Positions 3,236 through 47,759 of a DNA stretch of 64,000 nucleotides are shown in pieces. The stretch comes from Haliotis cracherodii (lineage: Eukaryota): the NCBI RefSeq assembly GCF_022045235.1, contig NW_027266264.1, positions 15,004,001 through 15,068,000 on the forward strand, written 5' to 3'. Every line of letters begins with the position of its first letter. The stretch's first letter is position 1. Under the pieces are notes generated by a model. It made no database searches. It was not told where the DNA came from and saw nothing but the letters and a program-made list of their open reading frames with translations. The position numbers and the translations under genes are program-made.

Positions 3236-3928
3236 GCCAGGGCTCGAGTTAAGGAATTTGATTTCACTTGGACCAGTTGCATGTTGACACGAAAAGCAAG
3301 TTGCGCCAAACAAAACCAAGTTGCACCCTGGTCCCATAAGTGTAGCAAAGTTGAACCCAGGCCAGTCTCGTGTCAGTGTCACATAAATTAATGACGTATT
3401 GCTGTAAAACGTAATCTTGAAGTACCCACATTTAGTTTTCATTGAGCATGACAAATTAACACAGGGGTCGATGGAGTTGGTCGTCGGACTGTATCATATT
3501 TCTGCTTGTGTTTGTTTGTTTGTTGTTTAAAGCAGCACTCGGCAATGTTGTACCTCTGAAGTTCCATGTTAGAATAATTTTTCAACAACCCATGCTTGCC
3601 GTAAAATGAGATAATGCTTGTAACAAAAAAACAACTGATCTAGATCTAGATCTTTCAAAATCATTTTCGATAATGCTTTTGTCGTTGTTATTTCTTCATT
3701 AATAGAAACGTTCATAGTATTGTAGTGTTTATGCTAGTTTTTTAATATTTGAAATTTTGATTTTACCACAGAATGCGATGTAGTCAGATTTTTATTTCTA
3801 CCTGCCTGTATACTTTGTTATGTGCATGTTGATTAAAGTAATTTCATGACACTGATTGGTTGATATGTAAATTTCGATGTACATACACAAATCCGTCTAT
3901 TTAGGTAATCTCCTGAGTACAATGAACA

Positions 3929-4799
3929 TTGGCTCACCTCAAACACCCATCCCGACGCACACATCCCCTTGGCTCACCACAAACACCCATCCCGACGCGC
4001 ACATCCCCTTGGCTATCCTCAAACACCCATCCCGACGCGCACATCCCCTTGGCTATCCTCAAACACCAATCCCGACGCGCACATCCCCTTTGCCCACCTC
4101 TAACACCTATCCCGACGCTCACATCCCCTTTACCCACCTCAAACACCCATCCCGACACCCACATCCCCTTTGCTCCCCTCAAACACCCATCCCGACGCGC
4201 ACATCCCCTTGGCTATCCTCAAACACCCATCCCGACGCGCACATCCCCTTTGCCCACCTCAAACACCTATCCCGACGCTCACATCCCCTTACCCACCTCA
4301 AACACCCATCCCGACGCTCACGCCCCCTTTGCTCCCCTCAAACACCCATCCCGACGCACATCCCCTTGGCTCACCTCAAACATCCATCCCGACGCTCATC
4401 CCCTTGGCTCACCTCAAACACCAATCCCGACGCACACATCCCCTCGGCTCCCCTCAAACACCCATCCCGACGCACACATCCCCTTGGCTCACCACAAACA
4501 CCCATCCCGACGCGCACATCCCCTTTGCCCACCTCAAACACCTATCCCGACGCTCACATCCCCTTACCCACCTCAAACACCCATCCCGACGCTCACGCCC
4601 CCTTTGCTCCCCTCAAACACCCATCCCGACGCACATCCCCTTGGCTCACCTCAAACATCCATCCCGACGCTCATCCCCTTGGCTCACCTCAAACACCAAT
4701 CCCGACGCACACATCCCCTCGGCTCCCCTCAAACACCCATCCCGACGCACACATCCCCTTTGCTCACCTCAAACACCCATCCCGACGCTCACATCCCCA
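3929..4799. repeat. ~40-bp C-rich minisatellite (~22 units) with a 275-bp higher-order repeat
   Basis: Unit ACATCCCCTTGGCTCACCTCAAACACCCATCCCGACGCGC. Diagnostic variants recur 275 bp apart (4319/4594, 4378/4653, 4440/4715). Confidence 0.95.
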
Positions 4800-4882
4800 T
4801 AAACGTAGCGCAAATACCTACTACATTAATCTGATCTCTACCTTCGTGACTTGTTTTTATTTCTCTTTTAACAACTTATTTT

Positions 4883-5040
4883 GTGAGTAAGTGAGTGTGG
4901 TTTTACGCCGTTGTCAACACTATTCCAGCAATAGCACGTCAGCAGAAATGGGCTTCACACAATGTACCCTTGTGAGGAATCAAAACCGGACCTTCGGTGT
5001 GACGAGAGAACGATTGAACCACCAGACTTACCCACTGTCC
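4883..5040 (-). mobile_element. tRNA-derived SINE (family B), degenerate
   Basis: Reverse complement matches the intact copy at 21507-21684 (GTGAGT tail, GGTTTTACGCCG, AATGGGCTTCACACA.TGTACCC). Confidence 0.8.
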
Positions 5041-6532
5041 TTTGTTGTCAAGGACATAATTATTCTTATGAGACCACCTCTGAGATTCCGGGGAAATAAT
5101 TACTAAAAAAGCGGGGAGATTTGTTACAACTTGTAACCTCGCTGATTGTGTGTCACTGTAATCCGACGGAGAGGATGGTTGGCGCCGTAGTTCTTCTGGT
5201 GACAGGGTAGGGCTGTGCTTTCCTAAAATATGCTATGATCCGGTGATCGTGGGTTTGAAATACAGATTTTTCACACCAGTACACTTGGGTTTCCCCAAAG
5301 TGGTAAACCTCTAGAACCTGTATTACATTGTTCCCGTCTCCAACACTAAGTCGACAGTGACGCCACACTGAGAAATAACTGAAATATTGTTCACAGTGGC
5401 GTAAATCCCAACTCCCTCATTCACTCCAGACTCAAGTATTTAAAGGCTGTAGTGATATAACTGTATAGTTGATCGCATGCATATGTATAACTCGTTCATG
5501 TGTGTCAATGCGACAGGTCCCTTACTGGGATTATGGGTCAGAATAGACCCTCAGCTCCCCATGGTAATCACAATAGTCGAAAATGAGGATCAGGTGATTA
5601 CAAAATGTTTCACCTGGCCGGTTGTGCGCCATCGTAACCCCCCGGCGTGGCTCTTGGCTCATGCTGTCAACCACTAGTTTGACTGTGACGTAAGCAACAA
5701 CACGTACAACTAAGTAAAATTCCTTTGTTGACACTAATTTGCCGAATATCAAAATAAAACTTGGCGCCCCCATTTCATTAGGGCTCGGTTTATACGACTC
5801 AAACTAGGTTAAATAACACCCTCAAATGGAAGGCTGTGTGTTGGAGTACCCGCCAGCCATGATAGATTAACGATAGTCATATGAAAACATCGGATATTCT
5901 TTAACATATTTTGAGTAGTATATATAGGCTATCATTGCTGAGTGCAGCTGAGACTCCAGAAAAATATTCAGCTGAGAAATAAGTAAAATTATACGTTATG
6001 ACATTTCACAACATTTTAATAACATGAACAAAAATACTTTCCTATTACAATAATAATGTTTCAATCAACCTAACCTGTATGTTTTAATTTTAAACACAGA
6101 TGATAAAAAACCTGTCAAAAACATAATATCTTGACACATATGCATCTGTGTTATCATAATCTCTAACTTATATGAAACACATATAAAAAGACGTTAGATA
6201 ATTTCGTTATGTCAAACAAGCGGAAACAAATTCGACGATCTTTGTATATAACATGATAGCACCTAGTTCAAATTTTTCACACACTCTGTACAGAAAGACA
6301 ATAACTTAATCAACCCCGTATATAATGGACAACATAAATCATATACTAGTATTTAATGTAACAAAAACCGTATATAATGGACAGCATATAAAATAGTAAC
6401 TATACCCGCAAATAATGGACAACATATACTTTCCATAGATTCTTCAGCATCTAAAATCATCTGTCATCAACAAGGATTTCATCAGTATCTAACTATATTC
6501 TGAAACGGGTAGTCAGCAAGGTGTGGAGTGTC

Positions 6533-9500
6533 TTATAAATACGCCACTCTTAACATCCTGTCGCCACCGTGGGTACAGGTGCTTGGCCTGCCTCCCCACG
6601 CCTTCATCACGGGTCTATTTGACCACTGTCCGTGTCCACAGCGGCTAGCAAATAGCTGTCTTTTTCTTTCCTTATGGAGGATTCGTTTCATCAGACACAG
6701 TCTCTTCATGTCATGAAAAGTGAGCTTAATAGGGGTTTGTGCCCCATTATCTTCAGGGCCGTCACAGGCGTGCTTCATCTGACAGGTCAATCCCACTTCA
6801 TCTTTTCCAGAGAAGGTGTTCACCCTCCTGCCAAACCCTCTAGGACAAGCCATTTGACGACCCAAGGATCTGCCCATGACGCGACGAATACTCTTCCTCT
6901 CATGATTTTTGCAGTTTGTGCTATTGTCTCCCATGATGAATTTGTCAGGGTTTGAAGCATAACATGATGTGACTTGATTGTTGATCGCCTCTGCCACAGG
7001 CTGGCTCATTCCAAAGTGGTTGTCACCTCGGTGACCTCCAAATCCATATATTCTTCCGCCTTTGGTTCCAGTTCCATGCAGATGAAGACGAAGACCACGG
7101 CGGCAGGTCTTCAAGACACGTCTTCTCCTGTGTCCGTGCATTCTTGGACATGGGTGTTTGTGAAATCTGTTAAGGCCTTGGAGGTATCGCAAGCGACGCA
7201 TGCGTCTTATAGTACGAGGACGATGAATTCTGAACGTTGGTCCTCTTCTGTGGCTCCTGCACATGTTGCCTCTCTGCATGACACAGCCCGCTTCATTGCA
7301 TTTTGGCATCACGTCATTCATTTGACCACGCCCCCCATACTTTCGGTTATTTCCAAGATACAAAGAAAGGGTCTTCCTGGGAAACCTGTTGAATTCAAAA
7401 TTTGAAGCTTCATCTTCCGAGGTTTCCCTGTTGGCTCTTCCCTCCATCGTCCTCCACTGGCGACGGATGCATCGTCTGATGTGAGGTTCGAATACTCTCT
7501 GCCATTTGTTTCCACGCGTTGTTTCCACTCTGACATTGCTGTTCTTATCGTGTGACTCCGAAACATCATCGCTAAACCTCACGCGACGTTTAGGACAACT
7601 CTCAAATCTATGGAGATTCTTTACGTCACTTTTGTTCAGACATCCAGGCATGTTTCCCGAGACACTCGTGCAACGAACACGACGACGCTGACAGCTGGCA
7701 AAGCTGCTATCAGCGCAGTGGCCATTGGGATAGCGTTCATCTTCAGTCTTATTATCTCGCTTGGACCATCTTCCAAAACAAGGCTCATTTCTACGACGCC
7801 ACCTTTTCCCACTGACCTCATGGTGGCCCATGGTGCGTCTCCCTGGTCCGTCTTGACCAGCTCGGTCACTACAGGATGCTTGAAATCCTCTGCAGCCAGC
7901 AAGGAAGGATTTCCTGGTCCCATGACATCCATAATCAGTACACTTGGCGTACCTTGAAGCTCGGCCTGCTTGCATTGATCTCCAATGTGGGTTGAAACAG
8001 AGATCGTCTTCTGTAGTATCACTACACTGATGCTCGAGTCCTGTCATCATCCGCCTTCTCCAAGGTCTTCCACATTTCCTGGTAGTTTCATCACGCTGGA
8101 GGTGACCATCTTTTTGTATCACCCGCCTTCTCCAACGTTGCCCACAGGAATTCAAAAGAGGCGCACCATCAATGGCATTCTCCTTCTGCAGGCAGGGACG
8201 TTCTTCTTGCATCACTCGCCTTCCCCTTCGTCCCCCACAATCGCTACCTGAAGACGTACTACCGCTTTCAGCCCCATCACGCTGACAGAGCCCGCCCAGT
8301 TCTCTCTGGCGTCGCCTCCCACAGACTCTCTTCGGGGTTACATGCTCCGTAGCTGTATCTTCATCAGCTGTAGGGTTTAACCTGTGCTGATGTCGACGAT
8401 GACGCCAGCCGGTCACAGTGCCAGATTCATCACCATTGTGCCCACAGGATGCTTGCAACTGCCATCGGCGACCATTTCTACAGATCTCTCGTCTGGATCC
8501 GCCTGCATCTGAAATATATAACATGTGACTGACTGTACACCTGAAGTCAGGAAAACAAGATGGCAGCCTACTTTAACAGGACAATTTGGAAAACATGTAT
8601 TATCCAATTTCAGACTTGTGATGTCATGTCTTTCTGCCTGGTAAGTTGACCACCGTTTTATCACCAGTAATATCAAATGCCATCGAAGATGACGTAGTTC
8701 ACCTATCATACAATTCTAATTTTGAAAATACACGTATAATATAAACTGCCACGTGACCAATATTAAGTTTGAAATCAATGAAACCGACAACAGAACACAT
8801 TTACAACTTCTTTTGTCATTTTACAATAATTGCCTATCAAACAATTCATTTTACAATAATTGCCTATCAAACAATTCATTTTACAATTATTGCCCATCAA
8901 ACATTTCATTTTACAATAATAGCCTATCTAACAATTCATTTTACAATAATTGTCTATCAAACAATTTATTTTACAATAATTGCCCATCAAACAATTCATT
9001 TTACAATAATTGCCTATCAAACAATTCATTTTACAATAATTGCCTATCAAACAATTCATTTTACAATAATTGCCTATCAAACAATCCATTTTACAATTAT
9101 TGCCTATCAAACAGTTCATTTTACAATAATTGCCTATCAAACAGTATTATTTTACAATAATTGCCTATCAAACAATTCATTTTACAATAATTGCCTATCA
9201 AACAACTCATATATATAATAATAATATACATAACTTGGGAGATGACTTACTGCTGTAGTTTCTCCTGACTTGTCCATCAACAAGGGATGTCATGGCATCG
9301 ACGTCGCCATCATCTTCCCGTCCCTGTTGTGGAATCTTCCTGGGCATTCTCATCAGACGTCTGAAGTGACGGGGTTGAACGTCCTTCGACAAAAAGAACG
9401 ACGTCTAGGATTAATTTTGAATAATAACTCTATATGACATAAAGGTTTTATTTCATATTGACATTATACGAAGTATATGTACAGAACGAAAGAGATCTTT

Positions 9501-10861
9501 AAAAGTATTTTCAGACCAGTTTATCGTTTTTTTAAGAGCATGCATCCAATGTCAAAGGGTTTACAGTTGAGCTTATTAAGCCAAGACAACATTTTTCTAA
9601 TATGGTATATAGTCATTAACTACAAACGAAATATCTGAACTTACCGTCTCCATCATTCTGTGTCCTCCAACGTCTGCTCTTTTCCCAAACACACGAGATC
9701 TGCGCCAAGTCTTAGCGTCAAGGGAGGTAACTCCTTCGGCTCTATTTGTCACGTCGTGCTCTGTTAGGCACAGAAACAAGTCTCAATACAGGGACACTAT
9801 TCAGGTCACACTGTGTACACTCTCGGTATGTGGCCCTGCGGAGACGGGCTGTTCGTTTTGCCGCTCACATAATCTATGCATTTATCTTATTCACCGTGAA
9901 GGCTCAGAGTCGAAGTCGCACACCGACATCATTTCATTGTTATTTGAAGACAAAGAGCTTTACAAAGAACCGGTTACAGTGATCGGTAAAACGAAGATTC
10001 CTTAGAAGCTATTAACTGTACACACTAGGAAATACATCATTCGATTTTGTGCTCTTTATGTCAATTGGAAATCAGCTCACCTCTGACGAAGATTTTCACA
10101 ACGGAATCATTGGCACTGCTGATGGCATCTTTGAGCTCTTCCTCTGAGGAGAAAGTGATTAAATCTCCATCTTCATCTGTTAAGGAAATACCATCATTAT
10201 GTTTATAAGCATGTACTACTGTCTCTTTAAACCATCATAAANNNNNNNNNNNNNNNNNNNNNNNNNNNNNNNNNNNNNNNNNNNNNNNNNNNNNNNNNNN
10301 NNNNNNNNNNNNNNNNNNNNNNNNNNNNNNNNNNNNNNNNNNNNNNNNNNNNNNNNNNNNNNNNNNNNNNNNNNNNNNNNNNNNNNNNNNNNNNNTGTTT
10401 TGATGTTTAAGAAAACAGTATATGCATGTTTTTATTGGCGAGGATTACAAAGCCATTCACAACGGTGTATTTAAACATTAAGTAGAAAATAATCCAATAT
10501 ATATTCATATCATTAAGTAATGACACGAAGAAGCACATCAAACCAAATGAAAAATGTTCAACAAACCATACCGGAAATATGTTAATTGGGTATATATTTT
10601 AAGAAATAATTCTCAATTTAGTCGTCAGTTTTCGAACTTAGTTCAACGACCACGTTGTATATTTATGTAATAAAGAGGAAAAAGTATACCTGTCCAGCAC
10701 AGTTTGAATGTGTCCGCATCAAGGTGTGGAAACACTTGCATCACCTTTTCGTTGATGAAGGTGTAACTAAGGGCGGCGTTATCGGGAACAGGGAAACGTC
10801 GGACCTCAGGAGTCGCGTTGCCCTGCCGCTCATAAATCATCTTTATTACCGAGGATTGCAT
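6533..10861 (-). CDS. PB1-domain (SQSTM1/p62-like N-terminus) protein with long Arg/Gly/Cys-rich tail, ~837 aa (gene A); coding exons 10861-10690, 10176-10081, 9760-9645, 9404-9251, 8508-6533
   Basis: Exon 1 encodes MQSSVIKMIY...EVRRF...FKLCWT and exon 2 encodes DEDGDLITFSSEEELKDAISSANDSVVKIFVR, a PB1 with OPCA motif (cf. p62 DEDGDLVAFSSDEEL...IFRIYIK). All introns are GT-AG with phases 1,1,0,1, joining into a 2514-nt open frame. No ZZ or UBA domain visible. Confidence 0.85.
8815..9207. repeat. 30-bp AT-rich minisatellite (~13 copies) in intron 4 of gene A
   Basis: Unit TCATTTTACAATAATTGCCTATCAAACAAT repeated head to tail. Confidence 0.95.
10242..10395. other. Assembly gap (N run) inside intron 1 of gene A
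   Basis: 154 N characters. Confidence 0.99.
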
Positions 10862-11118
10862 CTTGGGATTTCTCTGGACAGGATATGTCGTACAGCAGTG
10901 GGAGAACTGAAGGATTCTCACGTGTAGCAATCTGTATTCGCTATTTAGACCGGTCTTATTTCTTTAGCAGACGACAATTGAGTCTTTGTTCAGCAGCTGG
11001 CGTAGTAACTTCAGTATAGCTGTATAGAGCGTGCCGGCGGAGTGATTCTGTCAGTAAAACTAGGGGTTTATATACCAGGAAAATGAGTGATGTCAAGTAC
11101 TAATAATAGAATCAAACC

Positions 11119-11133
11119 GTTCTGGAACGTTCT
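11119..11133 (-). promoter_or_regulatory. Heat-shock element (three perfect inverted nGAAn units) upstream of gene A TATA
   Basis: GTTCT-GGAAC-GTTCT is the canonical HSF binding array, ~45 bp upstream of the minus-strand TATA. Confidence 0.8.
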
Positions 11134-11492
11134 CGTGACCGGTTTGGGGCCGTCCTAAACTATTTCAGACCGGTTGCGTCAGAATCACGGGACCCGGGTC
11201 GATTGATAAGGGCACGTGACGTGTAAGCTCCGTTCCGAATGGTTCTTGGGCCGGACTAGTTCACATTCCTTGGCTCTGAGCCAACACTCAACTTAAATCT
11301 ACATGCAGTTATATACACAGCTAAAGCCACATACATTTACGTTCAATAAATGCAAACGTTTGAAATAATGCTGGTGCGTCAACAGATTAATTGACACACG
11401 TTTAACTGTCCCAGATAATGTTTTAATTGCCATTTACAACAAAGCAGTTGTACATCACAACCGGTTGATTTACCTGGCACTCAGCCAATATT

Positions 11493-11502
11493 GTGACGTC
11501 AC
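11493..11502. promoter_or_regulatory. Palindromic CRE/ATF site
   Basis: GTGACGTCAC, next to a CCAAT box (~11485), within the bidirectional promoter. Confidence 0.5.
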
Positions 11503-11611
11503 TGTCGTTTTTGATGCGTAGGTGTTGCTGAAAGTCCTGTCCACGTGACCATGACTCGTCGAAGCTCGTGATCCTGATGCAACCGGTCTGAAACGTGCCA
11601 GCTCCGTTCTC

Positions 11612-11631
11612 GGAACGTTTTCGAACGTTCG
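11612..11631 (+). promoter_or_regulatory. Heat-shock element (four nGAAn units, one mismatch) upstream of gene B TATA
   Basis: GGAAC-GTTTT-CGAAC-GTTCG, ~33 bp upstream of TATAAAA at 11664. Confidence 0.75.
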
Positions 11632-11836
11632 ATTCTATTTCAAGAAATTACAACATACATCGGGTATAAAAGCCCGGGTTTGCGTTTGCTGACAGAATCA
11701 AGCGACTCTACTGCTACCTGCTGTCGTGAAAAGACAAAAAGAAGCCTATAGAAGTTCTATCGTCTGCTGCAAAGATATTTCACATTCAAACACCTGTTGA
11801 AACTTATCGTCACTGAGAATCAGCCCGAACAACACG

Positions 11837-14800
11837 ATGCAGTCTGTGGTTATCAAAGTGTTTTATGAGCGCGAGGGGAGAGGAAGACCCGTGGTCCGGC
11901 GTTTCCCTGGCCCTAAGGACGCCGCCCCTACATACACCTTCGTCCATGACAAGGTGACCCAGGTGTTCAAACACCTCGAGGCGGGGACATTCAACATGTA
12001 CTGGAAAGGTGAGTTTTTCTGTTTATTTGAATGTATTTATGTTTATGTTGTTCATAATAACAACATCTATCATTAAAGCGGACAGTATAGAGTTACTGAC
12101 CAACCCCTTGATTGATTCAGGGTAAGAATATAACCATAGGCAGCGTATGCTGGTCGTAAGAGGCAACTGAATGAATCGGGTGGTCGGGATCGATGACTTT
12201 ACTGATTGATTGTTATCATACCCCGACGGCGTAGAGCATTGCTCACAATAATGATCACTGGTTGTCTGGTCCAAACCCGGTTATGTACAGGCCGCCGCCA
12301 TAGCTGGAGTATTGCTGAGTGCGGCGTTAGATATCAAACAGTCACTGAACATGAATGTATTTATGAAGTATATCAGGGTTGGTTTCACTGTATTTCATTG
12401 AGTCTACACTGAACCATAATGCTTTGGGACGACTCATTGCGTTGGAAAACAACATTCACTCACATATTCAGTATAATGTTCAAAGCGATTGTTATTCCGG
12501 TATCCTAATGATAACTTTAAATGGTTCTTTGCGTGTCATGTACCCCTACGGAGTGGGGTGTTCATAATATCAATCACTTGTTAGTCTGATTTTTCACCGA
12601 CACCTTCATGTATCGGCAATATTGTTTCTACTGCGCCGTTAAACATTACTCACACACCCTCTGTTTCTTTCAAATAGACTTAAAGTCATGATTGATACAA
12701 AATAGTTCAAACATTCTCTCATAGTGTATATATTTTAAAAAAACATTTAATCGATATTTCATCAATAATTAGCATAACGAAAATGGGTTTGAAAATATGT
12801 GCGTAAATTATTCTGCCCAGGATTATCTCTTCAATGACGTAGATATACATGTTGGACGTATACGACAAAGCCCCGTTCATCTGCACGGTTCCATTCCTCG
12901 TGTTTTCGCCATTGTCGGATTAACAAGTCCATGAAGTTACCTTCTTTGAATATGTGTACTCATTCTAATCCCAAATCTTCCGGAATGCGTGTTTTCCAGA
13001 CTAACGGGGTTTAACTGTATAAAGCGTCAGACAATGTCTCAGTAAATATCATATCTGGGTAGTCAGTCGACCGTTTTATTTTAATTCTATTTTTAACCAT
13101 CTCACTTGTCTTTCGAGTTTGCGACAGTTGTCGCAGCATGTATGTGTAGTTTCTGTTCCTTATTCATGCTCAGAGTTCAAGTTCATTATAACAAGTAAGC
13201 TAACGTAAGCGAGCTATTGTTTCAGATGGTGAAGACGACTTTGTGACGTGCTCCACGGAACAGGAGATGGATGAGGCCCTCTGTTCCATCAAGGATTCCG
13301 TCCTCAGAATCTACATCCGAGGTACAAACGAACATTTTTCTGTTCAATATAAATATAATACACAGTCGTAATTTACTGCTGATGGCAATCGCAACCTGGG
13401 ATACATTCAACTGACCTTAATGTATTGATATTTAGGATCAACACATTTAACAGACTCGCTTGGACAAAGCGTATAAATGAATAACGTTTGTGTATGTAGA
13501 GATTGTATGGGGGCTTCAGCATCTCTTTATTCAGTACTACATGCCCCAGCTTTAACGTTGACTTTAACGGGGTTTTTTACTTTGATACTGTTGCCGAATG
13601 TGGTGATTGTGCTATTGTTGTTGTTAATGATGATAATGATCATGATGGGCATTAGTAATCCTTTGCAGAATGAGTCAGATGTATATTTTAAGATTCAAGT
13701 ACTTCCATGTCAAACTAATCTTTCGATGAATGATCTTTTTGCCAGATGTCTCTCCTGCCGTATCCGAGGAGGATGAATGGGACTTTGACCCCAGGATGCA
13801 GGGGTGGGGCCGAGGGTGGGGCAGGATGGGTGGCATGCGAAGTGCAGGCAGAATGGTGAGTTGCTATTAATCATGACTAATCCTTATTAATCATGACTAA
13901 TTATAAACATAAATCGAATGCCTCTCGAATAAACCCCTCGAAGTATCATTTTGACCGAAGACACCGCACCATCTTCTCTTGTACCTTTATTTATTCAACA
14001 TGCTCCCTTCCCACGGTATTTGATCAATTTACACACAATGTTGCAGCCAATGGAAGGAATGGCCCCTCCTCACTTTCTCCGATGGATGAAGCGCATGAAA
14101 CGCTGGAAGAAGAAGAATCAGTACCATGAGTCAAGGACTGAAGGGGAGGCCACTCCCGGTGAAGAGTCCGACAACACAGCAGATGGTGGCGCCCAAGCGG
14201 AAACTAGGAACGATGCACCTGAGGTCACAGAGGGCACATCCGATAGTAATGGTAGGTATCCTATCACACTCTCACTTACAACAACATACAATCACTAATG
14301 TCCACTTTACACAAACAAGTTGATCCATGTGTGTCTGTGGTCCGTCTCCTACAGTTGGAGGGACAAGGTAGACCGAGTGTGAAGTGATTGAGTGTGGGTT
14401 TTTTGCCACTTTGGTAAAGACAGTTATGTCACTACACCATAGCAAGAGACACCAACATGGGTGTTGTTCATTTTGCCCATTTAGTACCCAGTTCTTTGAC
14501 ACGGCGAGCAGTTGCTTTAACCAGTAGGCTATCCCACTGCCTCTTCCCTGTTTGTATATAACAGAGGTTGGCGAGATGATCGTGCACGTGTCCCCTGCAT
14601 GGGTCTTAGTACCATTGTCCGACGTCCGTTCACAGTAATGTTGACGGTCAGACAAATTAGTTCATCAGTGCTACATGGCTGTGGTCCAGTGAGCCATGTC
14701 TTCAGAATAATCGTTTCATTTAGTACTGACTTAAGGTTTTGTGTTACTCCCAATGGGTAGCGGCGGAGTAGGCTTGTGGGTTCAGGTACAGCATTCGCCC

Positions 14801-15550
14801 GTCAAACCCAAGTTCCCTGATTTCGTTCCCAACATGGGTCAAATGCCCAAAGCCCATTTCTGGTGTCACCCTCGTGATATTGCGTAAACCCATATACATG
14901 ATGGTTGTGTCTTCTACCTTGGCCTGTATTGTTTGACCGTGTTCTTGTACTTGTATTTGACAGATACAGAAATGAAGACAGATGGCCAAAGAGGAGCGAG
15001 AAAGTGTGGCAGAGGAAAGAAGGGAAGCCTAAAATGTCACAATCACGATCAACACCATGTTGAAGACCCCCAGACCAAAGAGGATGGTATCTTCGGATCC
15101 TCGGATGAGGAAATGCCTCCGCCAGTTCTCGGCTGCCCTGGTATGTTTGCAGGTGGCCCAATGCAGTTCTGGGGCATGATGGGAACGCATCCTTATGCGT
15201 GGGGTGAAGGCTGTAGGAAAAGAAGAGGATGGGGGAGGCGTGGTGGTCGTGGTGGTCGTGGAGGTTGCAAGAGGAGAGGGGAACACTTCAGTGAGATGTC
15301 ACCTTGGAACGACATGGGTTTTGCAGGATGGGAAGATGGACGAGGTGACCCTAGAGAGGGCGGCAGAGGTCGATTCGGGGGTCACCCTCGATGTGAAGGT
15401 CATGGTCAGGCACAGTGCCCTCGCAGACGTTGCCGCCGTCACAATGAGGCTGATGAGCCAATGGAAGCCTGCACAGAAGAAATGCGCAACGTCAAGGCCA
15501 CGGATGACATCATCACGCTTGATGATGAGGACGAGGCGCCCAAGATGTAG
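11837..15550 (+). CDS. PB1-domain (SQSTM1/p62-like N-terminus) protein with RGG-rich disordered region and C-terminal SIM-like motif, ~389 aa (gene B); coding exons 11837-12008, 13226-13321, 13746-13855, 14047-14251, 14964-15550
   Basis: Exon 1 MQSVVIKVFY...VVRRF...FNMYWK (172 nt) and exon 2 DGEDDFVTCSTEQEMDEALCSIKDSVLRIYIR (96 nt). Exon 1 and 2 sizes and all intron phases (1,1,0,1) equal gene A. 1170-nt open frame; AATAAA at 15948. Confidence 0.87.
12115..12340 (+). mobile_element. SINE (family A) in intron 1 of gene B
   Basis: GTCGTAAGAGGC.ACT...ATCGGGTGGTC...TGTCTGGTCCA...CCGCCATAGCTGGAGTATTGCTGAGTGCGGCGTTA, the reverse complement of the 24830 copy. Confidence 0.75.
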
Positions 15551-16019
15551 ACAGCTGATGCTTGAAAGAGACGGACATGTGCAGCATATTATTTGGTTGC
15601 AATTTGAATATCTAAGATCCTGTCATGAAGAACTACATTTATAATTCCTTGAATCAGACACGGACTACGAAAAGTCCATAGTTCAACATATTTTGTACAG
15701 GACATAGCTTATATTAAAATATTGATTCTGATGAATTTATCAGTGAGGCATAACAAAGTATTCTCATTATGTGTTGCTTGAACGTAAATGTACATATGAC
15801 CTCGATGTTGTCGCTATGGCAACAGTGCTGCAATATACTTTTTGTAAATACAATATTCATGGTTCCATTCAGTATTGTGTCATATATGTGCTTTTGCTGA
15901 TACTGTTATTTTGTTTATTATTTGAATTATTATTTTTCCAAGAGCTGAATAAAATGTGTTTATTTTAAAACATATACAATTCTTTTTACTTGTTCACCAC
16001 ACACATGGGGGGTTCATGC

Positions 16020-16180
16020 TGTGAGTGAGTTGTGTTTAACGCCGCTTTTAACAGTATTCCAGTTATATTGCGGCGTGTCAGCTTAATGTGAGAGGAAAGC
16101 CCGAAGTGATGCAGGTCTCAGACGTTTATCACTTCGGTAAAACCCACGAGCACGGGTATGGTGCTGACAAACCTAGAAAC
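16020..16180 (-). mobile_element. 5'-truncated SINE (family C)
   Basis: Near-identical to the tail half of the full copy at 22701-22981. Confidence 0.8.
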
Positions 16181-19100
16181 ATCATGTTGTAACAGTCCAC
16201 GTTAAAATGGACTGATGGTGGTGGATTGTCTGACGTCATAGAAACATATCAAACTTATGTCCTTAGTAAATGCAGAGTTACGCAACAGATCACATTCTAA
16301 TGTGCCCTAAAGCTCATACACAGGAATCACATAAAAATGAATATAAATTTTGAAAACCAGGGCATTATATCTTAAACAGGGCATATCATACATACCTCAT
16401 GGACGCACACAGTCTACATTATTGACATGACATGCAAGTCGAGCATATGAGTGGGTGAGTAAAAGCGTTTGGTTTATCAAAACTTAAACAATATCCCACA
16501 TCACAGCTGGGAACACAATAGGGCATCGATGTTATCGCGGATCCGAGCCCAGGTTCGCCTGATTATACACGATAATGTATGTATTGACAGAATGCTGTCT
16601 GTAACAGGAAGGTTATGACATAAACTGGAATAAACGTGTCTACAACTAACGCGTCATCAGTGCTGCAAGGTTTCGTATACACTGCACGGTTCCCTGTCAC
16701 CTGTGAATACAGGCTGTTGATTTGCAGGGTAGTCACTCAATTTAACCATATATCAAGCCCGGTTAAACCGAGAAGGAAAGTTAGCGAGGGAAAGATAAAC
16801 CACAATTCAGAGTTTCGAGTTAGTTATTGTCTTTCTTACCTTTAATATAATATGTTGATTTGCGGTGTAGTCATTCATTTTAAACACGTATCAGGGCACA
16901 GTCTGGTTCATGCTAGAAGGAAAGTTAGCGCCAGGAAGATGAACCACAATTCTGAGTTCTTATCTTTAATCAAATATTCTGTACACGTCTTTAGATCTCA
17001 CCTCAAACCACCCATATTTCTAGCGGCTGTGACCCAAAATGTATCTTTAATCAACAGTAAACAAGCGACCTTTTCACGACAAATCGAACTGCGTAAAATA
17101 AATCGTCAATGCCATTCAAACTTAGTATATTGTAAGATTTACACTTATTCAAAAACAACATGCAAAACGTAATAAACGTGTTGTTGCATTTAATTAATCA
17201 AATTTATCAAATTAACAATCTTGTCAGTCAACAAAGTCGAGTGCGAGAATGTCATTTGAAGTGGGTCACACGTGTTAACGTACGGCGGCTCAGTAGGTTT
17301 TCAAACATTAGCATTAACATTGCAAGACATGCACACCTTTATTGGGTGCATATATATTGATCAAGTTGCAGTTAATTATTCGGAATCAGAATCCAGAATT
17401 ATGCGACGTCTCTTCGCACGTTTAACTTTGGTTGTCAGCGGAAGTGGCGTTGTTGATGGGAATGTTGATTGTACTACCGTACACTGGACCAGCAAAACAT
17501 CGCCTGCATCAGAGTTTACATCATCAGAGTGCGAGAATGGGGATGAAGTGACAGACATGTCAGCTGACTTGAGGATTGTGTTACATGAATTTGTTTTTGA
17601 CAGTATGATCTTACAAGTCACATCAGTGCTTTACAAAATATTTCTTGCTGGAAAGTTTAAGTCCAGATAAAATTGCGCTGGCGCTACACTGACCCAGGCA
17701 ATGACTGCACAATGGGGGCTCACGACCTGTATTTACTACAGAAAAACGCTAGAACGGTTTTTTAATATTTTTTTTCTTCGCATTTTCATTACTGCTGTTG
17801 CAATGTATACGTCACGGGGATATCGTCCATTGTGACTTTAAGTGAAGGGAAACATTATTTAAGCTGTTTCTCGAAAGTGGTCGTCACATCGGTGACATGT
17901 AAACAATGACACACACCCCATTTTCAACAGTGATATGGGGGTTAATAGTTCGTGTCAGCTCACTGTTGTCACGAAATCGTACACATAATACATGGAATTA
18001 AACGACCACGTCAATGAAATACCGTTGGCATCTTTATTTTAGCAAATTTGATGACACAAATGTCGACGATTATGCCCCTTTTTCGTCCATTGTAAAATGG
18101 TGGTTTAGCGGAGTTATTGAACGCCCAGTATAGATAACTATAAAACAAACATTTTTGATCCGTAATAATGATATTTAATGATAGAGTCTGTCATTGGTTC
18201 TGATATTTGGCCTCTGGATTTTATTTACATGAAAAGCCGTGTATTTGGCATTTTTTTTGTTATTACACAATGAAATAAATCATAAATAGATCTAATAATT
18301 ATGGAAAAATAATTGATTGATTTCAATCTAGTGTTTCCTAACTATGTGTGTGCTTGTAAAAATTTCAGGACTAAATGGCATGATAATAAAGGATATGTTC
18401 CTACTTTTTAAATAATTTGGTACAGTGGCATACACATCCATGTGTATTCTATATGATGCAATATAACCACTGGGGAATCCATGTACAGAACAGGATAAAG
18501 AAGTGTGCATACCATTGTTATTGAACAATAGTTAATATGATTATAATCATCATGTTAGATGAAATATCGGTGTACGAAATAATCTACAAATAAATTTCTC
18601 AATAAAAAAATAAGTTACATTAGTGTTCAGGCTAGGGGAAAAATAACATGATCATGATGGTAATACATAAAATTAAAAGTGCACAGAAAGCGTAATATTT
18701 CTGGATGAAAGCTGGGGACACATGTGTACTTTCGACTATTTATTTGTGAACTGTTGAATTAAGGGTCATGATTACCAACGGAACGTGTCTTGATTATGCG
18801 TTCTACATATTTTGTGGCTTAAAGCCAGTATCAAAGCATATACTGAAATCATTTAGAGCATGATAATATGTAATATGATGTCATCATAATTATATTCAGC
18901 CAGTGGGTCAAATAATGCATTTCAATCTGTTTGCTTCACACTCTTATGCTTTAACAGTTCTGCTTCCAACACACAATCAGTGATTTTCCTTTGAATTCAA
19001 GAGAATTTGTACTGAACCCGTTGACCAATTTTGCTTCCTAATTAACGTACTAACAAGTTCCAAAACTGATTATAATAATTTTCGATTTTGATTTTATTCA

Positions 19101-19619
19101 GGACATCATGTTCATCAGCTTAGCATGTTTTTAGATGGTTCAGTTGGTAGTGAAAAACACAAGATGGAATTTTCTCAGATGTCTGATTGTTGAAACCCCT
19201 TTGGAGTTGAGTCAATGAGTCAATAGATACATTTTAAATTACAATTATCTTTAATTTGCTTGAAGGTTATGGTTGTTTGTTACTTGCATGTGTGGTCCAT
19301 AGAATGCGTTATTTGAATTTTGATAATAAATAATATGCATCATAATAACTCGGTGACCACAACACACACACACTTTGTTATCTCATCTGTAAGTGACACA
19401 AGGAAGGAAATAAATGAAATAGGTAGTTCCAACGAGTTACACAACTCGTCCTGACTATGGTTCCAGGTTTGTCAGCACGAGTTGGAAAACTTCTAAGACC
19501 TGCAACACTGCTTGAATGTAATGACTGTAACCAATGTTAGGACACTGTGAACTATCTTTTACGACAAACCAAGCATTTTTATACTGTGGACACGTGTGTT
19601 TTATTTACTATTTCAAGTG

Positions 19620-20500
19620 TCCATTAAATCAAGCATCAGTTGAATTTTCAGATTGTGATAGTCAAGGAAATGACTTTGTTGATAACTACAAATGTGATGC
19701 ACGTGATTATTACCTACTAAATACAGACATGGTGGATACAACTAAGGAAGAGATTACCAAAGAAATTGAATATCTAAAGAATGGGAAAGCAGGGGAAGAT
19801 GGCATCCCTGCAGAGTTCCTGAAAGTGGTCATTTCTTAATTGCTCCATATCTAAAACTTCTACAATTTAAAAGCTCCTGAGTTAGTGAGTGAGTATGGTT
19901 TTACGCCGCTTTTAGCAATATTCCAGCAATATCACGGCGGGAGACACCACAAATGGGTTTCACACTAAAAGCTCCTGAAAAGATCCTGGATCATAGAGTT
20001 TTCTCTGAAGAAAGGGGTATCGGCATGATCTTACCTTTGCATATATCAGGTAGTAAAGCTGATCCTAATGACTGCCGTCGAATATCCCTACTAACCCTTG
20101 TAAATTTGTTTTCTACTATTATTGAAAGAAGGCTGCATCAGAATCACAAGCTGGTTTCCGAGAACATAATTCTACAACAGACAACGTGTTCACTTTACAC
20201 GCATTAAGCAGTAAATGTCTGTGCAGACCAAAAGGGCGTTTCTCTTGTGCTTAAATCTATTTTTTTTAAAAGTATTTAACCTTGTTCGAAGAAAAAGACT
20301 TTTATATTCATTGTTACGGAAAGGATTCTAAAGTAACACATTATGTTCGAAAACATGCACGGCGCCGTTAAATATTGTTTGAAAATTAATAGTCAGAAAG
20401 CCCTATCGCTTGGGGCTGGAGTTCGTCAAGGATGCATCTTCAGTCTGCAACTATTTATTGTTATAAATGCATTGGTAACAGAAATGTATACATGTTGCAG
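19620..20500 (+). mobile_element. Degenerate L2/CR1-like LINE RT fragment, interrupted by a truncated family-B SINE (19881-19965, TSD TAAAAGCTCCTGA)
   Basis: EITKEIEYLKNGKAGEDGIPAEFLK, LPLHISGSKADPNDCRRISLL and GVRQGCIFS motifs with stops and frameshifts. Confidence 0.8.
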
Positions 20501-21506
20501 TCATGTCATATAATAACCTTTTTATCATATATCATAAAATGTATCCGTTTATAAAACATCAATAAATTCAGTGTTTATCCGTGCAACAGTTCCGAGTATC
20601 ACAAGTCGCCGACCGATACCAAAAGCTTCATCTTGCCGTCCGTTTTCGTGACGTGTTCTTGTTTTCATTTTGTACACAAAACCTTCCGTGTCCGTTTCGC
20701 CTTTACACCTGTCCCCAGTTTTGTCCAAGATAACATCTAGCTCTATAATTCAAATTGCATAATGCATTTTTACCTTGTTTGGAAAAAATTGTCAAGGGAA
20801 AGCTTGCTAGCAGACGAGCAGATGACGTACTAAGGGACGTAACTCCAATTTCTTACCATCCGGACTGATATCAATCGCCCATTCAAAATGCATCGACAAA
20901 CCATATCAGCCGTCAGGGGGTGTAACATGGGTCTGGTTCTTACACCACCTGTAATATAACTGTCTCTATGTCGGCTCTATTGCACATGCAAAATGGCTAA
21001 TATCATTGTTAGGTATTTGATTAAATACACTAAATGAACAAAATGATCGTCTGTATTTTCATCATATTGGGGGATTAAGGTCATTTGATGATGCCTATTG
21101 CTCGTGAGATGTCCTGTAAAATTTTGAGCAGCCACTTCACCGCTATTTCCCTCAAAGCTCCCAGTCTGAAAACATTACTCCGGTGAACAACTGACTTGCC
21201 TTGGCATGTGTTTGTGACTTGTTCCACTGGTGGGGCGGGACACTCTCACCTTTTCGCGAACACCTGGTATCATCAGTATTTGATTGTGATTCATAAACAC
21301 ATGGAATAGTCGAATCGTACAATCGACTCTGCTTTCAGCACAGATGTATTATGAATATGGTTTTGTCGCTTTTATTTCCATACCTTGACCTTAATCAAGA
21401 CAACTTCCCATTCAACAAACATTCAAGTTTCAGCATTGTACAAGCAAAAAGTGCAACAGGTGTAGCTGACAATGAATGATGCAAGCAGGTTTCACAATAA
21501 CGTCAA

Positions 21507-21684
21507 GGGGCGGTCGGGTAGCCTAGTGGTTAAAGCGTTAGCTCGTCACGCCGAAGACTCGCGTTCGATTCCCGATTGGGTACAATGTGTGAAGCCCATT
21601 TCTGGTGTCCCCCGCCGTGATATTGCTGGAATATTGATAAAAGCGGCGTAAAACCTAACTCACTCACTCACTCACTCACTCACT
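21507..21684 (+). mobile_element. Full-length tRNA-derived SINE (family B) with target-site duplication
   Basis: A box TAGCCTAGTGG, B box GTTCGATTCC, (ACTC)n tail, flanked by CACAATAACGTCAA. The paralogous site at ~41483 is empty. Confidence 0.92.
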
Positions 21685-22700
21685 CACAATAACGTCAAAG
21701 TAGTATTTGTTTAGAAAAATGTAAATATATAGTTACATGCTTGTAGAAAAATTCATGCATATGGAGCAATGACAAAACCAACGATTTCAAAAACCTGAAA
21801 GATGACATTGATTTTTCACTAATCTTATGCCAAACCTTTTTAAACAAGGGTCCCGCCCTAGAGAAAGTATATACGAAGTTCCATGGCATACATACATGTA
21901 ACATTATACAGGTATGACATCCATGAATAAAAATCATCATTGCACCACATCATTTCAGGTATTGGGATCTCGAAATATGTGTTGTATTCTAATTGAAGCC
22001 GTCAATAGAGAGTCGGTGTTTGCTTCGGGCCAAATCGTAGATTAAACAACTGCCGTCAGTAATATATATATATTAGAATGCACTCTGCACTTGAACACAG
22101 GAGATGAAATTCAAAATTAACGGATCGTTTTCAGTCTCAACAAAATCAGTAACTGTGATATCGTGTCACTGGAGTTTCTTTTCCATCATTTGATTGTCTG
22201 GTTGTTGTCACCAGGTCGTAAAACTACTCTTGTCACATGTCTAGTGACCGCTTCGCTCCCCCGGTTTAATACCGTCATCGTTCGGCAAAGTCTGGCTGTC
22301 ATTGTTGTGCAGTGTCATCTCATTCCTTAGAGAATGTGACCCGAGTATTTCATTCTCTTGTGATTCAATGGCACACTTTTAACATGTATTGACTTGAACG
22401 TCATCTCATTTATGTTTGCGGTATACAAATGCGAAACTGTTGAACAACGTCGTGATAAGGTAAAAAAGAAGAAGACATACGATGTTATGTAAACGGTCCT
22501 TAAATGTTATCGACTGTCACATTAAGCAAATGAATTGACAGTAAACATACGAAATAACCAGTGAAATGAACGCATGTAAATTTCCAGTGAGGGTACTTTA
22601 CAATTATACTTAACTGTCGCGTTGTTATTGTTCCGTTCAATTAATAGATCAATTGGGGGCTGGCAACCGAGAAACGTGAGAGTTCAATAATATGTATTTG

Positions 22701-22981
22701 AGTGAGTGAGTGAGTTGGGTTTAACACCGCTTTTAACATAATTCCAGTTATATCACGGCGTGTCAGCTTAATGTGGGAGGAAAGCCCGAAGTGATGCAGG
22801 TCTCAGACGTTTACCACTTCGGTGATACCCACGAGCACGGGTATGGTGCTGACAAACCTAGAAACATAATCGGGGCGAACCGGGATTCGAACCCACAATC
22901 ATAGGTTTCTGGCGTGCCCAAGGGACGCAACTCTGCACATCGAATCGCGGCGCCTTAGACGACTGGGCCACCTGTGCCCCC
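22701..22981 (-). mobile_element. Full-length tRNA-derived SINE (family C) with 12-bp TSD
   Basis: Minus-strand head GGGGCACAGGTGGCCCAGTCGTCTAAGGCG...GGTTCGAATCCCGG, (ACTC)n tail, flanked by AATATGTATTTG (22689-22700 and 22982-22993). Confidence 0.9.
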
Positions 22982-24829
22982 AATATGTATTTGGGAGGAA
23001 CGGTAATTTGATTACCGATTAGTTGAAACAGAAAACATGGGAAGTTAATGTAATAATTTAACGTATACCTAAGCTTACAAATTGGAGTAGATTTTGCAAT
23101 CGTAATTAGAGAACAATTTAAGTCCTCCCGGTAGGTTCAGTATCTCTGTATTTCTGTAACTATTCTCAGTGCCGTAGTAGGCCGGGGACAGGGGGGCAGT
23201 TCTCCCCTGTAAAAAAACCGTTAACTACGGCCTTGATTGTACCTTAAGTCCCCACCCTCATATACCTCGTATAATATATGTGTAGCCCACGTATGCCGTG
23301 GCTCAACTATATGAGTGTTAATAAAGTTCTGCCTTGTTCTGTTATGTTCCGTTCTGAGAATAGCAGAACCAGTAAACAAAAACCGTGGGTGCAAGATGCC
23401 AGGGTGCGAGACTGAGATTCTTTGATTTGTAAGGACAGCACCCGTGCTCGTGGCTTTCACTTGTATCACTTCGGACTTTTCTCAAGTATCAAACTGTCTC
23501 GTCGTAATATAGACTGTTCAAAGCGGTGCGCGAATCCACAGACATTGGCTTTAATGCCGACGTCATTTGTATGTTTTGATTTATTAAGAAACATACATGT
23601 AAACAACAATATGTCAAAAATAGACACATAGAGGAAGATGACACGAAAACACATCAAAAGAAACCCGTTCGTTGCGACCAATCTCGACGAAGACGAGTTT
23701 ATGACATGCACCCATGATGGATTGGTGACTAAATAATGCCCGAGGCTGCGGCTAGGCTACAACACCCTTACCTGTTCGGGAACTGCTTGTGGCAAAATAA
23801 TTAATGCGTATTATGAACTACTTTCAGTACAGAGTGCCAATGATCTCGCTCGGAAACATATTGTTGAATTGTATATAAATATCCTCGGCGACTAAAACAG
23901 GAAAGATATATGAGCCGTCTGATGTTATTTTCTAATGTCCACAGGAAATATACAACGTCTCTATCATTGTATTGCAAACATTAAACCGATTGTACATTTT
24001 CAGTGTGAGACATTCTTTTGTATGTTTTTAATTCGTTAAAGTGTTTTACAAGGTGATCGACTACTTGACCCCGAAGACATGACGTACACTGATAGGAGCG
24101 CTGAAAGATGAAAAGGCATCTTTTTATTTAATCATTTTATTTATGTCAACTGTCTTCATCGACCGATCTGAGTACGAGTTCACAGCAAAAACAGATTAAC
24201 GTCACACTGCTTGCATGCTTCTACATATGTATCGAAATATTTTCACAAAATGGTTCAATAACTCAAATGGCTAAGGTTCCATTTTCGTATGTATATTGTT
24301 CAAGCAAATTGTGTATGTTTTGTAAACACAATGTTATGGTAAATTTTATTCTAATTTGACATCCAGTATCTAGATAAAGCAAATGTAAGTCATCGGAGAT
24401 CAAAACTGATAGTATATGTACTTGAATGAACAATTTTGACAATGAAGAGTGTGGTCCAATCGAAATTGATGTCAAATTTCGAAAATAACTCGCAAGATAC
24501 TTTTCTGATTAGCAAGATACTTTAAACCTCAAAGGATGCATCCAGGCCTCATAAGATACGTTAAAGACCTGTACGTTTAAGCTTCATGAGATACGTCCAA
24601 TCTCTGAAACTCTAGGTACAATATGTTCAAGCTGTATAAGATACCACTAAGCTTTATAGAATGCACTCGAACTTCATGCAATTCGTTCAAGCTTCACAAA
24701 ATACGCACAAGCGTCATGAGATATGTCTAAATTTCATAATATGCATCCAAGCTGCACGCAGATACATTCAAGCTTCACTAGAAGCAAGGTACATATATAA
24801 ATGCGCAATATATGCAGCTTTGCATTTTT

Positions 24830-25075
24830 TTGTTTGTTGTTTAACGCCGCACTCAGCAATATTCCAGCTATATGACGGCGGTCTGTAAATAATCGAGTCT
24901 GGACCAGATCATTCAGTGATTGACATCATGATCATCGAATAACGTAATTGATACCGATGACATGCATCAACCAAGTCAGCGAGTCTGACCACCCGATCCC
25001 GTTAGTCGCCTATAACGACAAGCATAGTCGCCTTTTACGACAAGCATGGGTTGCTGAAGCCCTATTCTTCCCCTA
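24830..25075 (-). mobile_element. SINE (family A; abundant abalone-type repeat)
   Basis: GTTTGTTGTTTAACGCCGCACTCAGCAATATTCCAGCTATATGACGGCGGTCTGTAAATAATCGAGTCTGGACCAGA..., with at least 6 related copies in the window. Confidence 0.82.
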
Positions 25076-28264: not shown

Positions 28265-28889
28265 CAAACGTCATGACGGTGCCTCCAATGAAATAAGTAA
28301 GTATATAAGTGAATCTGCAAAAACAGTAAAAGATTCAAATGGCGTAGACGTTTGTTCATGTGTGTATATGGTAATGCCTGAAATATGATGTTTCGCATTT
28401 ACGTTTATTATCGGAACTGTCTTTGTACCAATTAACATTTATATGATTAAGAGTTTATGTATTAACCCATTCTACCATGTTATGACAGGTACAAAGATCC
28501 TCCTTTCCCGTGCTTTTGGTCACAAACTCAGAACAATCGCAGGAACGTACAACAAGAAACTGGTCGATTCAAAGTCTATTCACTTGTGAGATTTCCGCTA
28601 ACAATACACAACATAAGCCGCCCCATTCAACTATATCACTATCTCATCTATGTGTTTCTACAATGAATATAGTTCCGCCGAGATCGAGATGAATAAATGA
28701 AAGAAGTTGTCGTCATTGTTTATGTTTTTGTATGCTTCGGATGTTCCCTTTCGTGACCCTTACAATTCCAGTGCCAAAGTGATATACGCTTTCATTTTCG
28801 TCATGTATTATAACGAATATATGTTAACACCGCTGACAACTGATTTATAGTATTTTAGTGATATCACGGGAGACAGATTGACGAATGAG

Positions 28890-46200: not shown

Positions 46201-46265
46201 TCTATAAATTTTAACATTATGTACGACAACAAACCATTCCTTGTTTGTAATTTCAGTTCGTGAAA

Positions 46266-47117: not shown

Positions 47118-47759
47118 CTGGTTAACAAACACCATGACAGTGCATCCAATGATATAAGTAAGTATGTGAGTAAATCTACACAAATAGTAAAAGTCTCAAA
47201 TGGTGAAGACGGCTTTTTTCACATATATATAATAATGTCTGAAATATGATGCTTTATCTTTACCTTTCTTATCGAAATTGTCTTTGCAAAATATAATATT
47301 TTAATGATTAAGATTTATTATATGGTCCGATTCTCTCATTTTATGACTCCAGATACTTGATTCCTCAACAAGTACAAAGATCCTCCTTTCCGTGCTACTG
47401 GTAAAAAATTCAGAACAATCGCAGGGACGTACAACACGAAACTGGTCGAATCAATACACAACATGAGCCCAGTTCAACTATATTACTATCTTATATTTGT
47501 GTTTCTACAATGAATATAGTTCCGCCAAGATAAATAAATGAAAGAAATTGTCATCATTGTGTATGTTTTTGTACGTTTTGGATTAAACCTTTAGTGACCC
47601 TTACACTACCAGTGCCACAGTTGTATAAACTTTAATTTTCGTCACATATTATACCGCTGTAAATAATACCCTCTGCGTATGGTTTTGTCTCGATACATAG
47701 GAATGCAGGGGCATATCGGATGGTTATTGCTGAAGTCGATCATGTGTAACCTTAGTTGA

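Follow-up and report, generated by a model that had tools for sequence, protein, structure and literature searches.

Head-to-head genes whose starts lie less than 1 kb apart are regarded as having a bidirectional promoter, and such promoters are typically TATA-less and GC-rich. Head-to-head inverted stress genes include the Drosophila 87A hsp70 pair and the C. elegans hsp-16 pairs, and the class I sHSP genes of rice reportedly provide a further example. In Drosophila wound enhancers, Grainyhead-type sites have CREB and AP-1 partner sites. SQSTM1/p62 is controlled by TFEB, the CLEAR consensus is GTCACGTGAC, and one study, going by its title, is said to describe HSF1-dependent p62 expression. 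Intron 1 of human p62 lies at c.205.

According to PMC9582228, p62 itself arose via duplication and domain loss. A heat-shock element (HSE) is described as needing at least three nGAAn units (PMC9065632). The consensus for the AARE is given as TGATGMMAH, and mouse p62 is reported to have a functional AARE (PMC3763548). In Drosophila, epidermal genes induced by wounding are reported to require Grainy head (PMC3634835). The Grainyhead/GRHL consensus is given as AACCGGTT (PMC5829564), with C3 and G6 described as critical for GRHL binding and the edge bases as tolerant (PMC5829564, PMC13105062).

Here we analyse a window of 64,000 nucleotides from the abalone Haliotis cracherodii (contig NW_027266264.1, positions 15,004,001 to 15,068,000), in which two genes, L and R, lie head to head. 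The intergenic region comprises the 975 bases between the start codons at 10861 (−) and 11837 (+), which are 976 bases apart. The pair thus has the orientation and the sub-kilobase spacing of a bidirectional promoter, but there is a TATA box on either side and the GC content is 44%, unlike the TATA-less, GC-rich type. A first-pass annotation of this DNA had read the region as one mirror-symmetric bidirectional promoter that co-induces both genes under stress.

The gene pair

The gene models are as follows, in window coordinates.
6533..10861, − strand: left gene L, 830 aa, PB1 and Arg-rich tail; translates exactly to P0007, XP_071098114.1
10861-10690, 10176-10081, 9760-9645, 9383-9251, 8508-6533, − strand: coding exons of L, five-exon model
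11837..15550, + strand: right gene R, 389 aa, PB1 and Gly/Arg/acidic tail; translates exactly to P0005, XP_071098125.1
11837-12008, 13226-13321, 13746-13855, 14047-14251, 14964-15550, + strand: coding exons of R, five-exon model

The two genes have equal exon 1 and exon 2 lengths (172 and 96) and the same four intron phases (1, 1, 0, 1). An in-frame alternative acceptor for exon 4 of L is also present at 9404, and R has an AATAAA at 15948. In both RNA-like runs (2/2, two organisms from two studies), contigs depart from the genomic sequence at donors 10690 and 12008 to continue in exon-2 letters; both L and R are therefore spliced.

PB1 is the sole Pfam domain of each protein (E 5.6e-12 for L), and all nine solved-structure matches to it are p62. 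The L and R domains are identical at 46 of 89 residues. K7, R21-R22 and an acidic W-x-D-x-[ED]-[GD]-D patch are present in 10/10 L/R proteins, which accordingly carry an N-terminal p62-type PB1 with basic and acidic surfaces; these residues are described as those used in p62 oligomerisation (PMC9014876). In both genes, intron 2 is a phase-1 intron within codon 90. Residue 90 corresponds in the alignment to residue 101 of human p62, whose intron 2 is reported to follow c.301 (PMC9361805).

The tails differ from p62. Neither ZZ nor UBA was found by Pfam in L/R, a custom ZZ profile stayed at shuffle level in 7/7 tails, and the custom LIR profile and the UBA profile gave shuffle-level scores or no match in the same 7/7. 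A pattern scan of the tails for the LIR core found none in P0005 or P0007 and one unconserved match in P0002. A DMGF word in 4/4 R proteins does match the UBA profile, yet its score is reached by 7-22 of 100 shuffles. R keeps the post-ZZ segment of p62 (20-29 bits, 0/100 shuffles each, 4/4 R proteins). The L tail has 741 residues and a net charge of +80, and a protein atlas search with it gave no usable match. Residues 375-385 of R (15508-15540, +), DDIITLDDEDE, occur in P0005 and P0002 and not in H. asinina P0003; this C-terminal stretch resembles a SUMO-interacting motif.

A search of 1.8 billion representatives gave 191 matches, 150 of them listed; among the best 30, which were scanned for domains, 23 have PB1, ZZ and UBA, and 28 have ZZ. 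In a tree of 35 N-terminal PB1 regions, rooted at the drawing midpoint, L and R form a sister pair (99/98) on a long branch (0.62) and group with Haliotis p62 (97/91 and 96/93). Relatives of L and R were found in H. cracherodii, H. rufescens, H. rubra and H. asinina only. As far as sequence can tell, L and R are Haliotis-restricted offshoots of p62/SQSTM1 that descend from p62 yet fail the ZZ, LIR and UBA tests. The common intron phases and the sister position of L and R among Haliotis p62 support the earlier proposal that an SQSTM1-related gene underwent inverted duplication. The analogy drawn with vertebrate SQSTM1 regulation holds by descent only, because the L/R proteins are without the ZZ, LIR and UBA of p62.

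In H. rubra, L and R (LOC124291392/LOC124291393) are numbered consecutively, as genes and as proteins. A further L and a further R exist in H. cracherodii on a contig of equal length, and H. rufescens has two L-type genes (P0001, P0008, P0009, P0176); among these proteins, P0001 and P0008 seem nearer to H. rufescens than to the copies in the window. The L/R pair may be duplicated, or the assembly may contain both haplotypes. The abalone pair is annotated merely as uncharacterized. Literature searches found no paper on five L/R gene ids and nothing on the pair under abalone sequestosome and heat stress; a search for SQSTM1 promoter literature likewise found no paper. Abalone stress RNA-seq tables may contain entries for the two genes.

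Two mirrored promoter halves

The intergenic region contains the following elements.
10948-10955, no strand: Grainyhead-like GACCGGTC in the left 5' UTR, consensus match
11043-11054, − strand: left start-site block CTGACAGAATCA, exact mirror of 11689-11700, putative start
11067-11074, − strand: left TATA box TATATAAA (TATAAA at 11067-11072), from sequence and mirrored position
11105-11113, − strand: left GATTCTATT block, 9/9 identity to 11631-11639
11119-11133, no strand: left HSE, pentamers AGAAC GTTCC AGAAC, three units in this assembly
11137-11144, no strand: Grainyhead-like GACCGGTT, left half only, consensus match
11163-11189, − strand: left composite block, C/EBP-ATF-like TGACGCAAC overlapping Grainyhead-like AACCGGTC, 25/27 identity to 11567-11593
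11163-11181 (−) and 11575-11593 (+): TGA(C/T)GCAACCGGTCTGAAA, part of the composite block
11213-11218, no strand: left E-box CACGTG, palindrome
11270-11275, − strand: AGCCAA, mirrored remnant of the right CCAAT box
11276-11482, no strand: AT-rich central spacer with inversion axis near 11376-11379, from GC and fold-back score
11459-11466, no strand: perfect Grainyhead consensus AACCGGTT, confined to the right half, whose start block is 230 bases away
11485-11489, + strand: CCAAT box, distal element of the right half (11483-11501)
11494-11501, + strand: CRE TGACGTCA, distal element of the right half
11542-11547, no strand: right E-box CACGTG, palindrome
11567-11593, + strand: right composite block, AARE-type TGATGCAAC overlapping Grainyhead-like AACCGGTC, from mirror and consensus
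11612-11631, + strand: right HSE, GGAAC GTTTT CGAAC GTTCG, four units, second imperfect (GAA, TTT, GAA, TTC)
11631-11639, + strand: right GATTCTATT block, directly after the right HSE
from 11665, + strand: right TATA box TATAAAAG (TATAAA at 11665-11670), from sequence
11689-11700, + strand: right start-site block CTGACAGAATCA, sequence mirror

Alignment of the sequence upstream of the CTGACAGAATCA blocks to its own reverse complement gives a score of 44, compared with a mean of 17.5 and a maximum of 30 for dinucleotide shuffles, none of which (0/300) is as good. Collinear exact matches of at least 8 bases chain to 62 bases (mean 15.3, maximum 37 over 500 shuffles). Measured from the start block on the left and right, respectively, TATA lies at 18 and 24 bases, GATTCTATT at 59 and 58, the HSE at 78 and 76, the composite block at 127 and 114, the E-box at 164 and 147, and AGCCAA at 221 and 206. 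Six ordered blocks recur at near-equal offsets, at ~220 bases or less from each start block. The alignment, a check proposed by the first-pass annotation, places the symmetry far above chance and bears out its ordered motif modules, inverted between the two promoter halves; every motif it named is present where it was placed.

Under the same scoring, intron pairs 1-4 were matched or beaten by 88/100, 130/300, 53/300 and 9/100 shuffles; left intron 1 is in part an assembly gap of N. For exon pairs 3-5, 203/300, 92/300 and 70/100 shuffles were as good, and the 3' flanks of L and R are likewise at shuffle level. The description of introns and tails as diverged beyond recognition is mostly accurate, but ~20 bases at the start of intron 1 are still alignable, one 36-column patch in intron 4 beat 100/100 shuffles under lenient scoring, and the phases are the same. 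The 5' UTR halves are aligned as well by 20/300 shuffles; they contain two more collinear exact blocks, TCGTCTGCT and TGAGAATC, at 10966-10974/11760-11768 and 10913-10920/11814-11821.

The central spacer is weakly self-inverted about 11376-11379 (10/1000 shuffles and 43/2522 other window centres score as high). The GC content falls to 35% in the centre (11281-11450), and CpG observed/expected is 1.18 in the region and 0.79 in the window. AGAATC occurs in 7 copies in the intergenic region. The strand folds with z = -5.9 (20 shuffles), but this follows from the inversion and was not counted as evidence for a cruciform or hairpin. An Rfam scan of window positions 5000-20000 gave 0 matches.

The CTGACAGAATCA blocks, the only two copies within the window, are just 635 bases apart, between two spliced genes. 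This proximity speaks for a single shared bidirectional promoter that would co-induce both genes mainly via HSF1, ATF4/CEBP and TFEB like the hsp70 and hsp16 pairs. Against such sharing, each gene has its own full set of sites within ~220 bases, and an AT-rich, variable spacer separates the two sets (at least 9 differences in other samples at 11389-11437). The perfect CRE and CCAAT had been placed between the halves; both in fact belong to the right half, 195-206 bases from the right start block and ~430-440 from the left. A CRE was looked for in the left half and is absent, and the AGCCAA of the CCAAT box has a mirrored left copy. As for TFEB, CACGTG is indeed present at 11213 and 11542, but only the 6-base palindrome is common to both halves. 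The E-boxes fit CLEAR GTCACGTGAC at 9/10 (left) and 8/10 (right) with the matching flanks on non-mirrored sides, and are at most candidate CLEAR sites. The sequence argues for parallel site sets over shared elements serving both directions. We consider a shared promoter unlikely; the best reading is that one inverted duplication left two TATA promoters placed back to back.

One RNA contig (contig 18, run X14) begins at 11695, which is 30 bases past the initial T of the right TATA box, and a second right contig begins at 11767; the left contigs reach just 11004 and 10976. These RNA-like data are assembled contigs with conditions not on record, which cannot show start, strand or level. Of the proposed start-site blocks, the right one probably does contain its start, the contig at 11695 being a weak hint; the left one is a candidate start site that no left contig reaches. 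Run X14 also has depth-2.6 contigs over the promoter centre (11213-11599), maybe from DNA carry-over or upstream transcription, and these were set aside.

Composite block and heat-shock elements

The composite block is the best conserved in the region (25/27) and fuses a Grainyhead-like site to TGA(C/T)GCAAC; no 27-base window of the constrained PB1 exons exceeds 22 identities. Its bZIP-type part fits the AARE consensus of PMC3763548 at 9/9 positions on the right (TGATGCAAC) and 8/9 on the left, and by this fit is an AARE-type site. The AARE-type word alone is not enriched (45/1000 shuffles reach 2). The C/EBP-ATF/AARE-like site of the first-pass annotation thus stands by consensus, but its reading missed the Grainyhead half of the block. 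Contigs carry A11167>G, which alters the left block in its tail and spares both cores, and the right block has no difference among the 40 listed of 122. A metagenome scan with the composite block returned one locus (62% GC) that is alike over the 24-base motif only, and was rejected as a chance match.

Both HSEs lie where they had been reported, but the right one is imperfect and the left one is perfect in this assembly only. G11125>A is present in contigs of 2/2 DNA runs, at 9.47/9.47 depth in X1 and 21.7/21.7 in X7. It breaks the middle unit of the left HSE, giving TTT as in the second unit of the right HSE. Since both DNA runs carry it, the perfect form on the left is likely derived or specific to one copy, and as evidence the "perfect" left HSE is weak. 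The right HSE together with GATTCTATT (11612-11639) has no difference among the 40 listed of 122.

These results bear on whether the region is a shared promoter centred on heat. Units of the GAAnnTTC type are enriched (4 in the region, a count matched by 5/1000 shuffles), the four-unit right HSE is without listed differences, and the AARE fit recalls the functional AARE reported for mouse p62 (PMC3763548). On the other side, the middle unit of the left HSE is broken in 2/2 DNA runs, and the strongest motif is Grainyhead-like rather than a proteostasis element. In the part of the review that concerns them, HSF1 and p62 are tied by p62 phosphorylation, not by a promoter HSE (PMC9304931).

Grainyhead-like sites

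The strongest signal of the region is absent from the first-pass annotation: Grainyhead-like sites. RACCGGTY has 5 occurrences in the 975-base region against 3 in the remaining 63 kb, the latter including a perfect AACCGGTT at 9968-9975 (no strand) in intron 2 of L; 0/1000 local shuffles reach 5. CCGGTC and ACCGGT are the top enriched 6-mers. One of the five sites is perfect, three have one edge mismatch and one has two, and all keep CCGG. With C3 and G6 of AACCGGTT invariant, they are putative Grainyhead/GRHL sites, named, like the other factors here, from vertebrate and fly consensus sequences. The perfect site at 11459-11466 is ~405 or more bases from the left start block (405-440 for CRE, CCAAT and this site). 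Three of the five RACCGGTY sites have no mirror partner and are therefore not leftovers of the duplication.

With RACCGGTY as the top enriched word, spliced contigs of both genes in both RNA-like runs and a left HSE that is not fixed, the region could instead serve a tissue or differentiation programme, driven by Grainyhead in epithelium (mantle, gill, epipodium), with stress-like words minor or incidental. Two features make this very unlikely in our view: a bZIP-type word is part of the best-conserved block, and both halves carry mirrored HSE-like units.

Selection or residual similarity

The PB1 codons of L and R have a dN of 0.30-0.32 and a dS of 0.85-1.67, with 13/23 fourfold sites identical; the estimate comes from 88-89 codons, and the bootstrap 95% range of dS is 0.55-1.54. 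In simulations in which one half decayed neutrally, at d = 0.85, the observed 45-base chain (11043-11700) was reached in 1, 0, 23 and 6 of 300 runs, and at d = 1.2 or 1.7 in at most 2/300. At d = 0.6 it was reached in 19, 5, 136 and 75 of 300. Because neutral decay can reach the chain at d = 0.6, inside the dS range, the paralog footprint is suggestive, not decisive.

The mirrored blocks might accordingly be leftover similarity from a fold-back duplication, with a centre that decayed more slowly by chance or through arm-to-arm conversion near the axis, under no special selection. The lower bound of dS (0.55) allows this, as do simulations with rate variation at d = 0.6-0.85, where the chain is reached in 6-136/300. 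Besides the weak self-inversion of the centre, dS rises from 0.77 in exon 1 to 1.29 in exon 2, a gradient that conversion between the arms could produce too. Several pieces of evidence oppose it: (i) The positions of the blocks are those of TATA, start, bZIP and HSE-like words. (ii) Spacers between the blocks are at or near shuffle level (33-433/500). (iii) Differences avoid motifs. The contigs differ from the window at 122 places, 40 of them listed, and among those listed 24 substitutions or indels fall in 11043-11700; motif bases (195/658) hold 2 of the 24 (P = 0.012), with motif bounds chosen by the analyst and contigs that may stem from another copy of the gene. The break in the left HSE is one of these two. 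(iv) The three unmirrored RACCGGTY sites need another cause. (v) The best 27-base window of the PB1 exons falls short of the promoter block. Leftover similarity as the whole explanation therefore seems to us distinctly improbable. Selective retention of the modules, as first proposed, is likely in that the blocks outdo the introns, but unproven in that the lower bound of dS allows neutral decay; selection on the shared motifs is likely, not proven.

Surroundings of the locus

Elsewhere in the window, 19372-28815 and 39119-47656 form a ~19-20 kb tandem segmental duplication at 72-86% identity. Each copy has a long Pro/Gln-rich ORF with a hydrophobic, signal-like start and no Pfam family (26972-28264 and 46251-47117, +), which by composition may be shell-matrix-like. 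Two further long, low-complexity ORFs with signal-like starts and no Pfam family lie at 52492-55062 (+; 856 aa, Pro/Thr/Gln/Ser-rich) and 62334-63629 (+; with 35-residue basic repeats of 105-base period). Broken Tc1/mariner-type transposase remnants (HTH, DDE_3) occur at 32313-33302 (+), 50660-51512 (+) and 61098-61595 (−). A dispersed, high-copy repeat of 65-70 bases is found at 12282-12346, 4872-4941, 16006-16075 and 19870-19939, among others, with one copy in intron 1 of R. Tandem arrays lie at 3877-4841 (40-base period) and 8756-9212 (30-base period, in intron 4 of L).

Proposed mechanism

We propose, with a probability of roughly 55%, that the region consists of mirror TATA promoters from one inverted duplication, with sites kept by selection, in which Grainyhead would prime each gene in epithelium and bZIP and HSF factors would induce it. 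An inverted duplication of an abalone p62 offshoot would have copied a unidirectional TATA promoter about an axis near 11378, and purifying selection, rather than mere youth, would account for the blocks. By their consensus, the candidate binding factors are Grainyhead, ATF4/CEBP-type bZIP and HSF. The Grainyhead sites may give epithelial competence or a wound response, the bZIP site may serve the integrated stress response, and the HSE is predicted to be stronger on the right. Co-regulation would act mainly through parallel copies of the same sites. The right half, which is richer (CRE, CCAAT, perfect Grainyhead site, four-unit HSE), could lend activity to the left. L and R would be switched on in epithelium by stress or wounding, and their products may polymerise with each other or with canonical p62 and would do so without binding ubiquitin or Atg8.

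A bolder extension, which we put forward as speculation and hold to be rather improbable, is that L and R are inducible p62 decoys under a mirrored Grainyhead-bZIP-HSF code, turning degradative p62 bodies into storage or RNA-binding condensates. If so, PB1 proteins would join p62 filaments, with Gly/Arg-rich and basic tails replacing the ubiquitin- and Atg8-binding arms. If the two proteins do act on p62 filaments, they would modulate selective autophagy from within the cell's own gene set, in a genus for which tolerance of heat and disease is important to conservation and aquaculture.

Comparison with known systems

Mirrored inverted promoters of stress genes are already known; the abalone pair and a Grainyhead-bZIP-HSE code were not found in print. 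Like the inverted stress-gene pairs, L and R are divergent paralogs separated by less than 1 kb, and both have a TATA box and HSE-like units. Unlike them, the abalone genes are intron-rich, far diverged p62 offshoots, not chaperones, and their HSEs are short and imperfect, with a dominant motif that is Grainyhead-like. The pair is a compact natural test of promoter-site survival after duplication.

With SQSTM1/p62, L and R share PB1, K7, R21, the acidic patch and an intron 2 whose codon and phase are as in human c.301; they differ in having no detected ZZ, LIR or UBA and, in L, a 741-residue tail of charge +80. Compared with the mammalian p62 promoter AARE (ATF4/CHOP; PMC3763548), abalone TGATGCAAC likewise fits TGATGMMAH. 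The abalone AARE-type site is proximal (~-115 to -130), with a Grainyhead-like site fused to it, whereas the mouse AARE is reported at ~-1350 (PMC3763548); the two are compared by consensus fit, not as homologues.

As described for Drosophila wound-response genes (PMC3634835), predicted Grainyhead-type sites in abalone are clustered beside bZIP-type sites. The fly targets of Grainy head described there are cuticle-repair genes (PMC3634835), whereas abalone L and R are p62 offshoots known from sequence; they raise the possibility that Grainyhead regulates p62-family genes in a mollusc. Set against these systems, the promoter architecture by itself is of a known kind, and the genus-restricted, PB1-only offshoots of p62 are the more interesting side of the locus.
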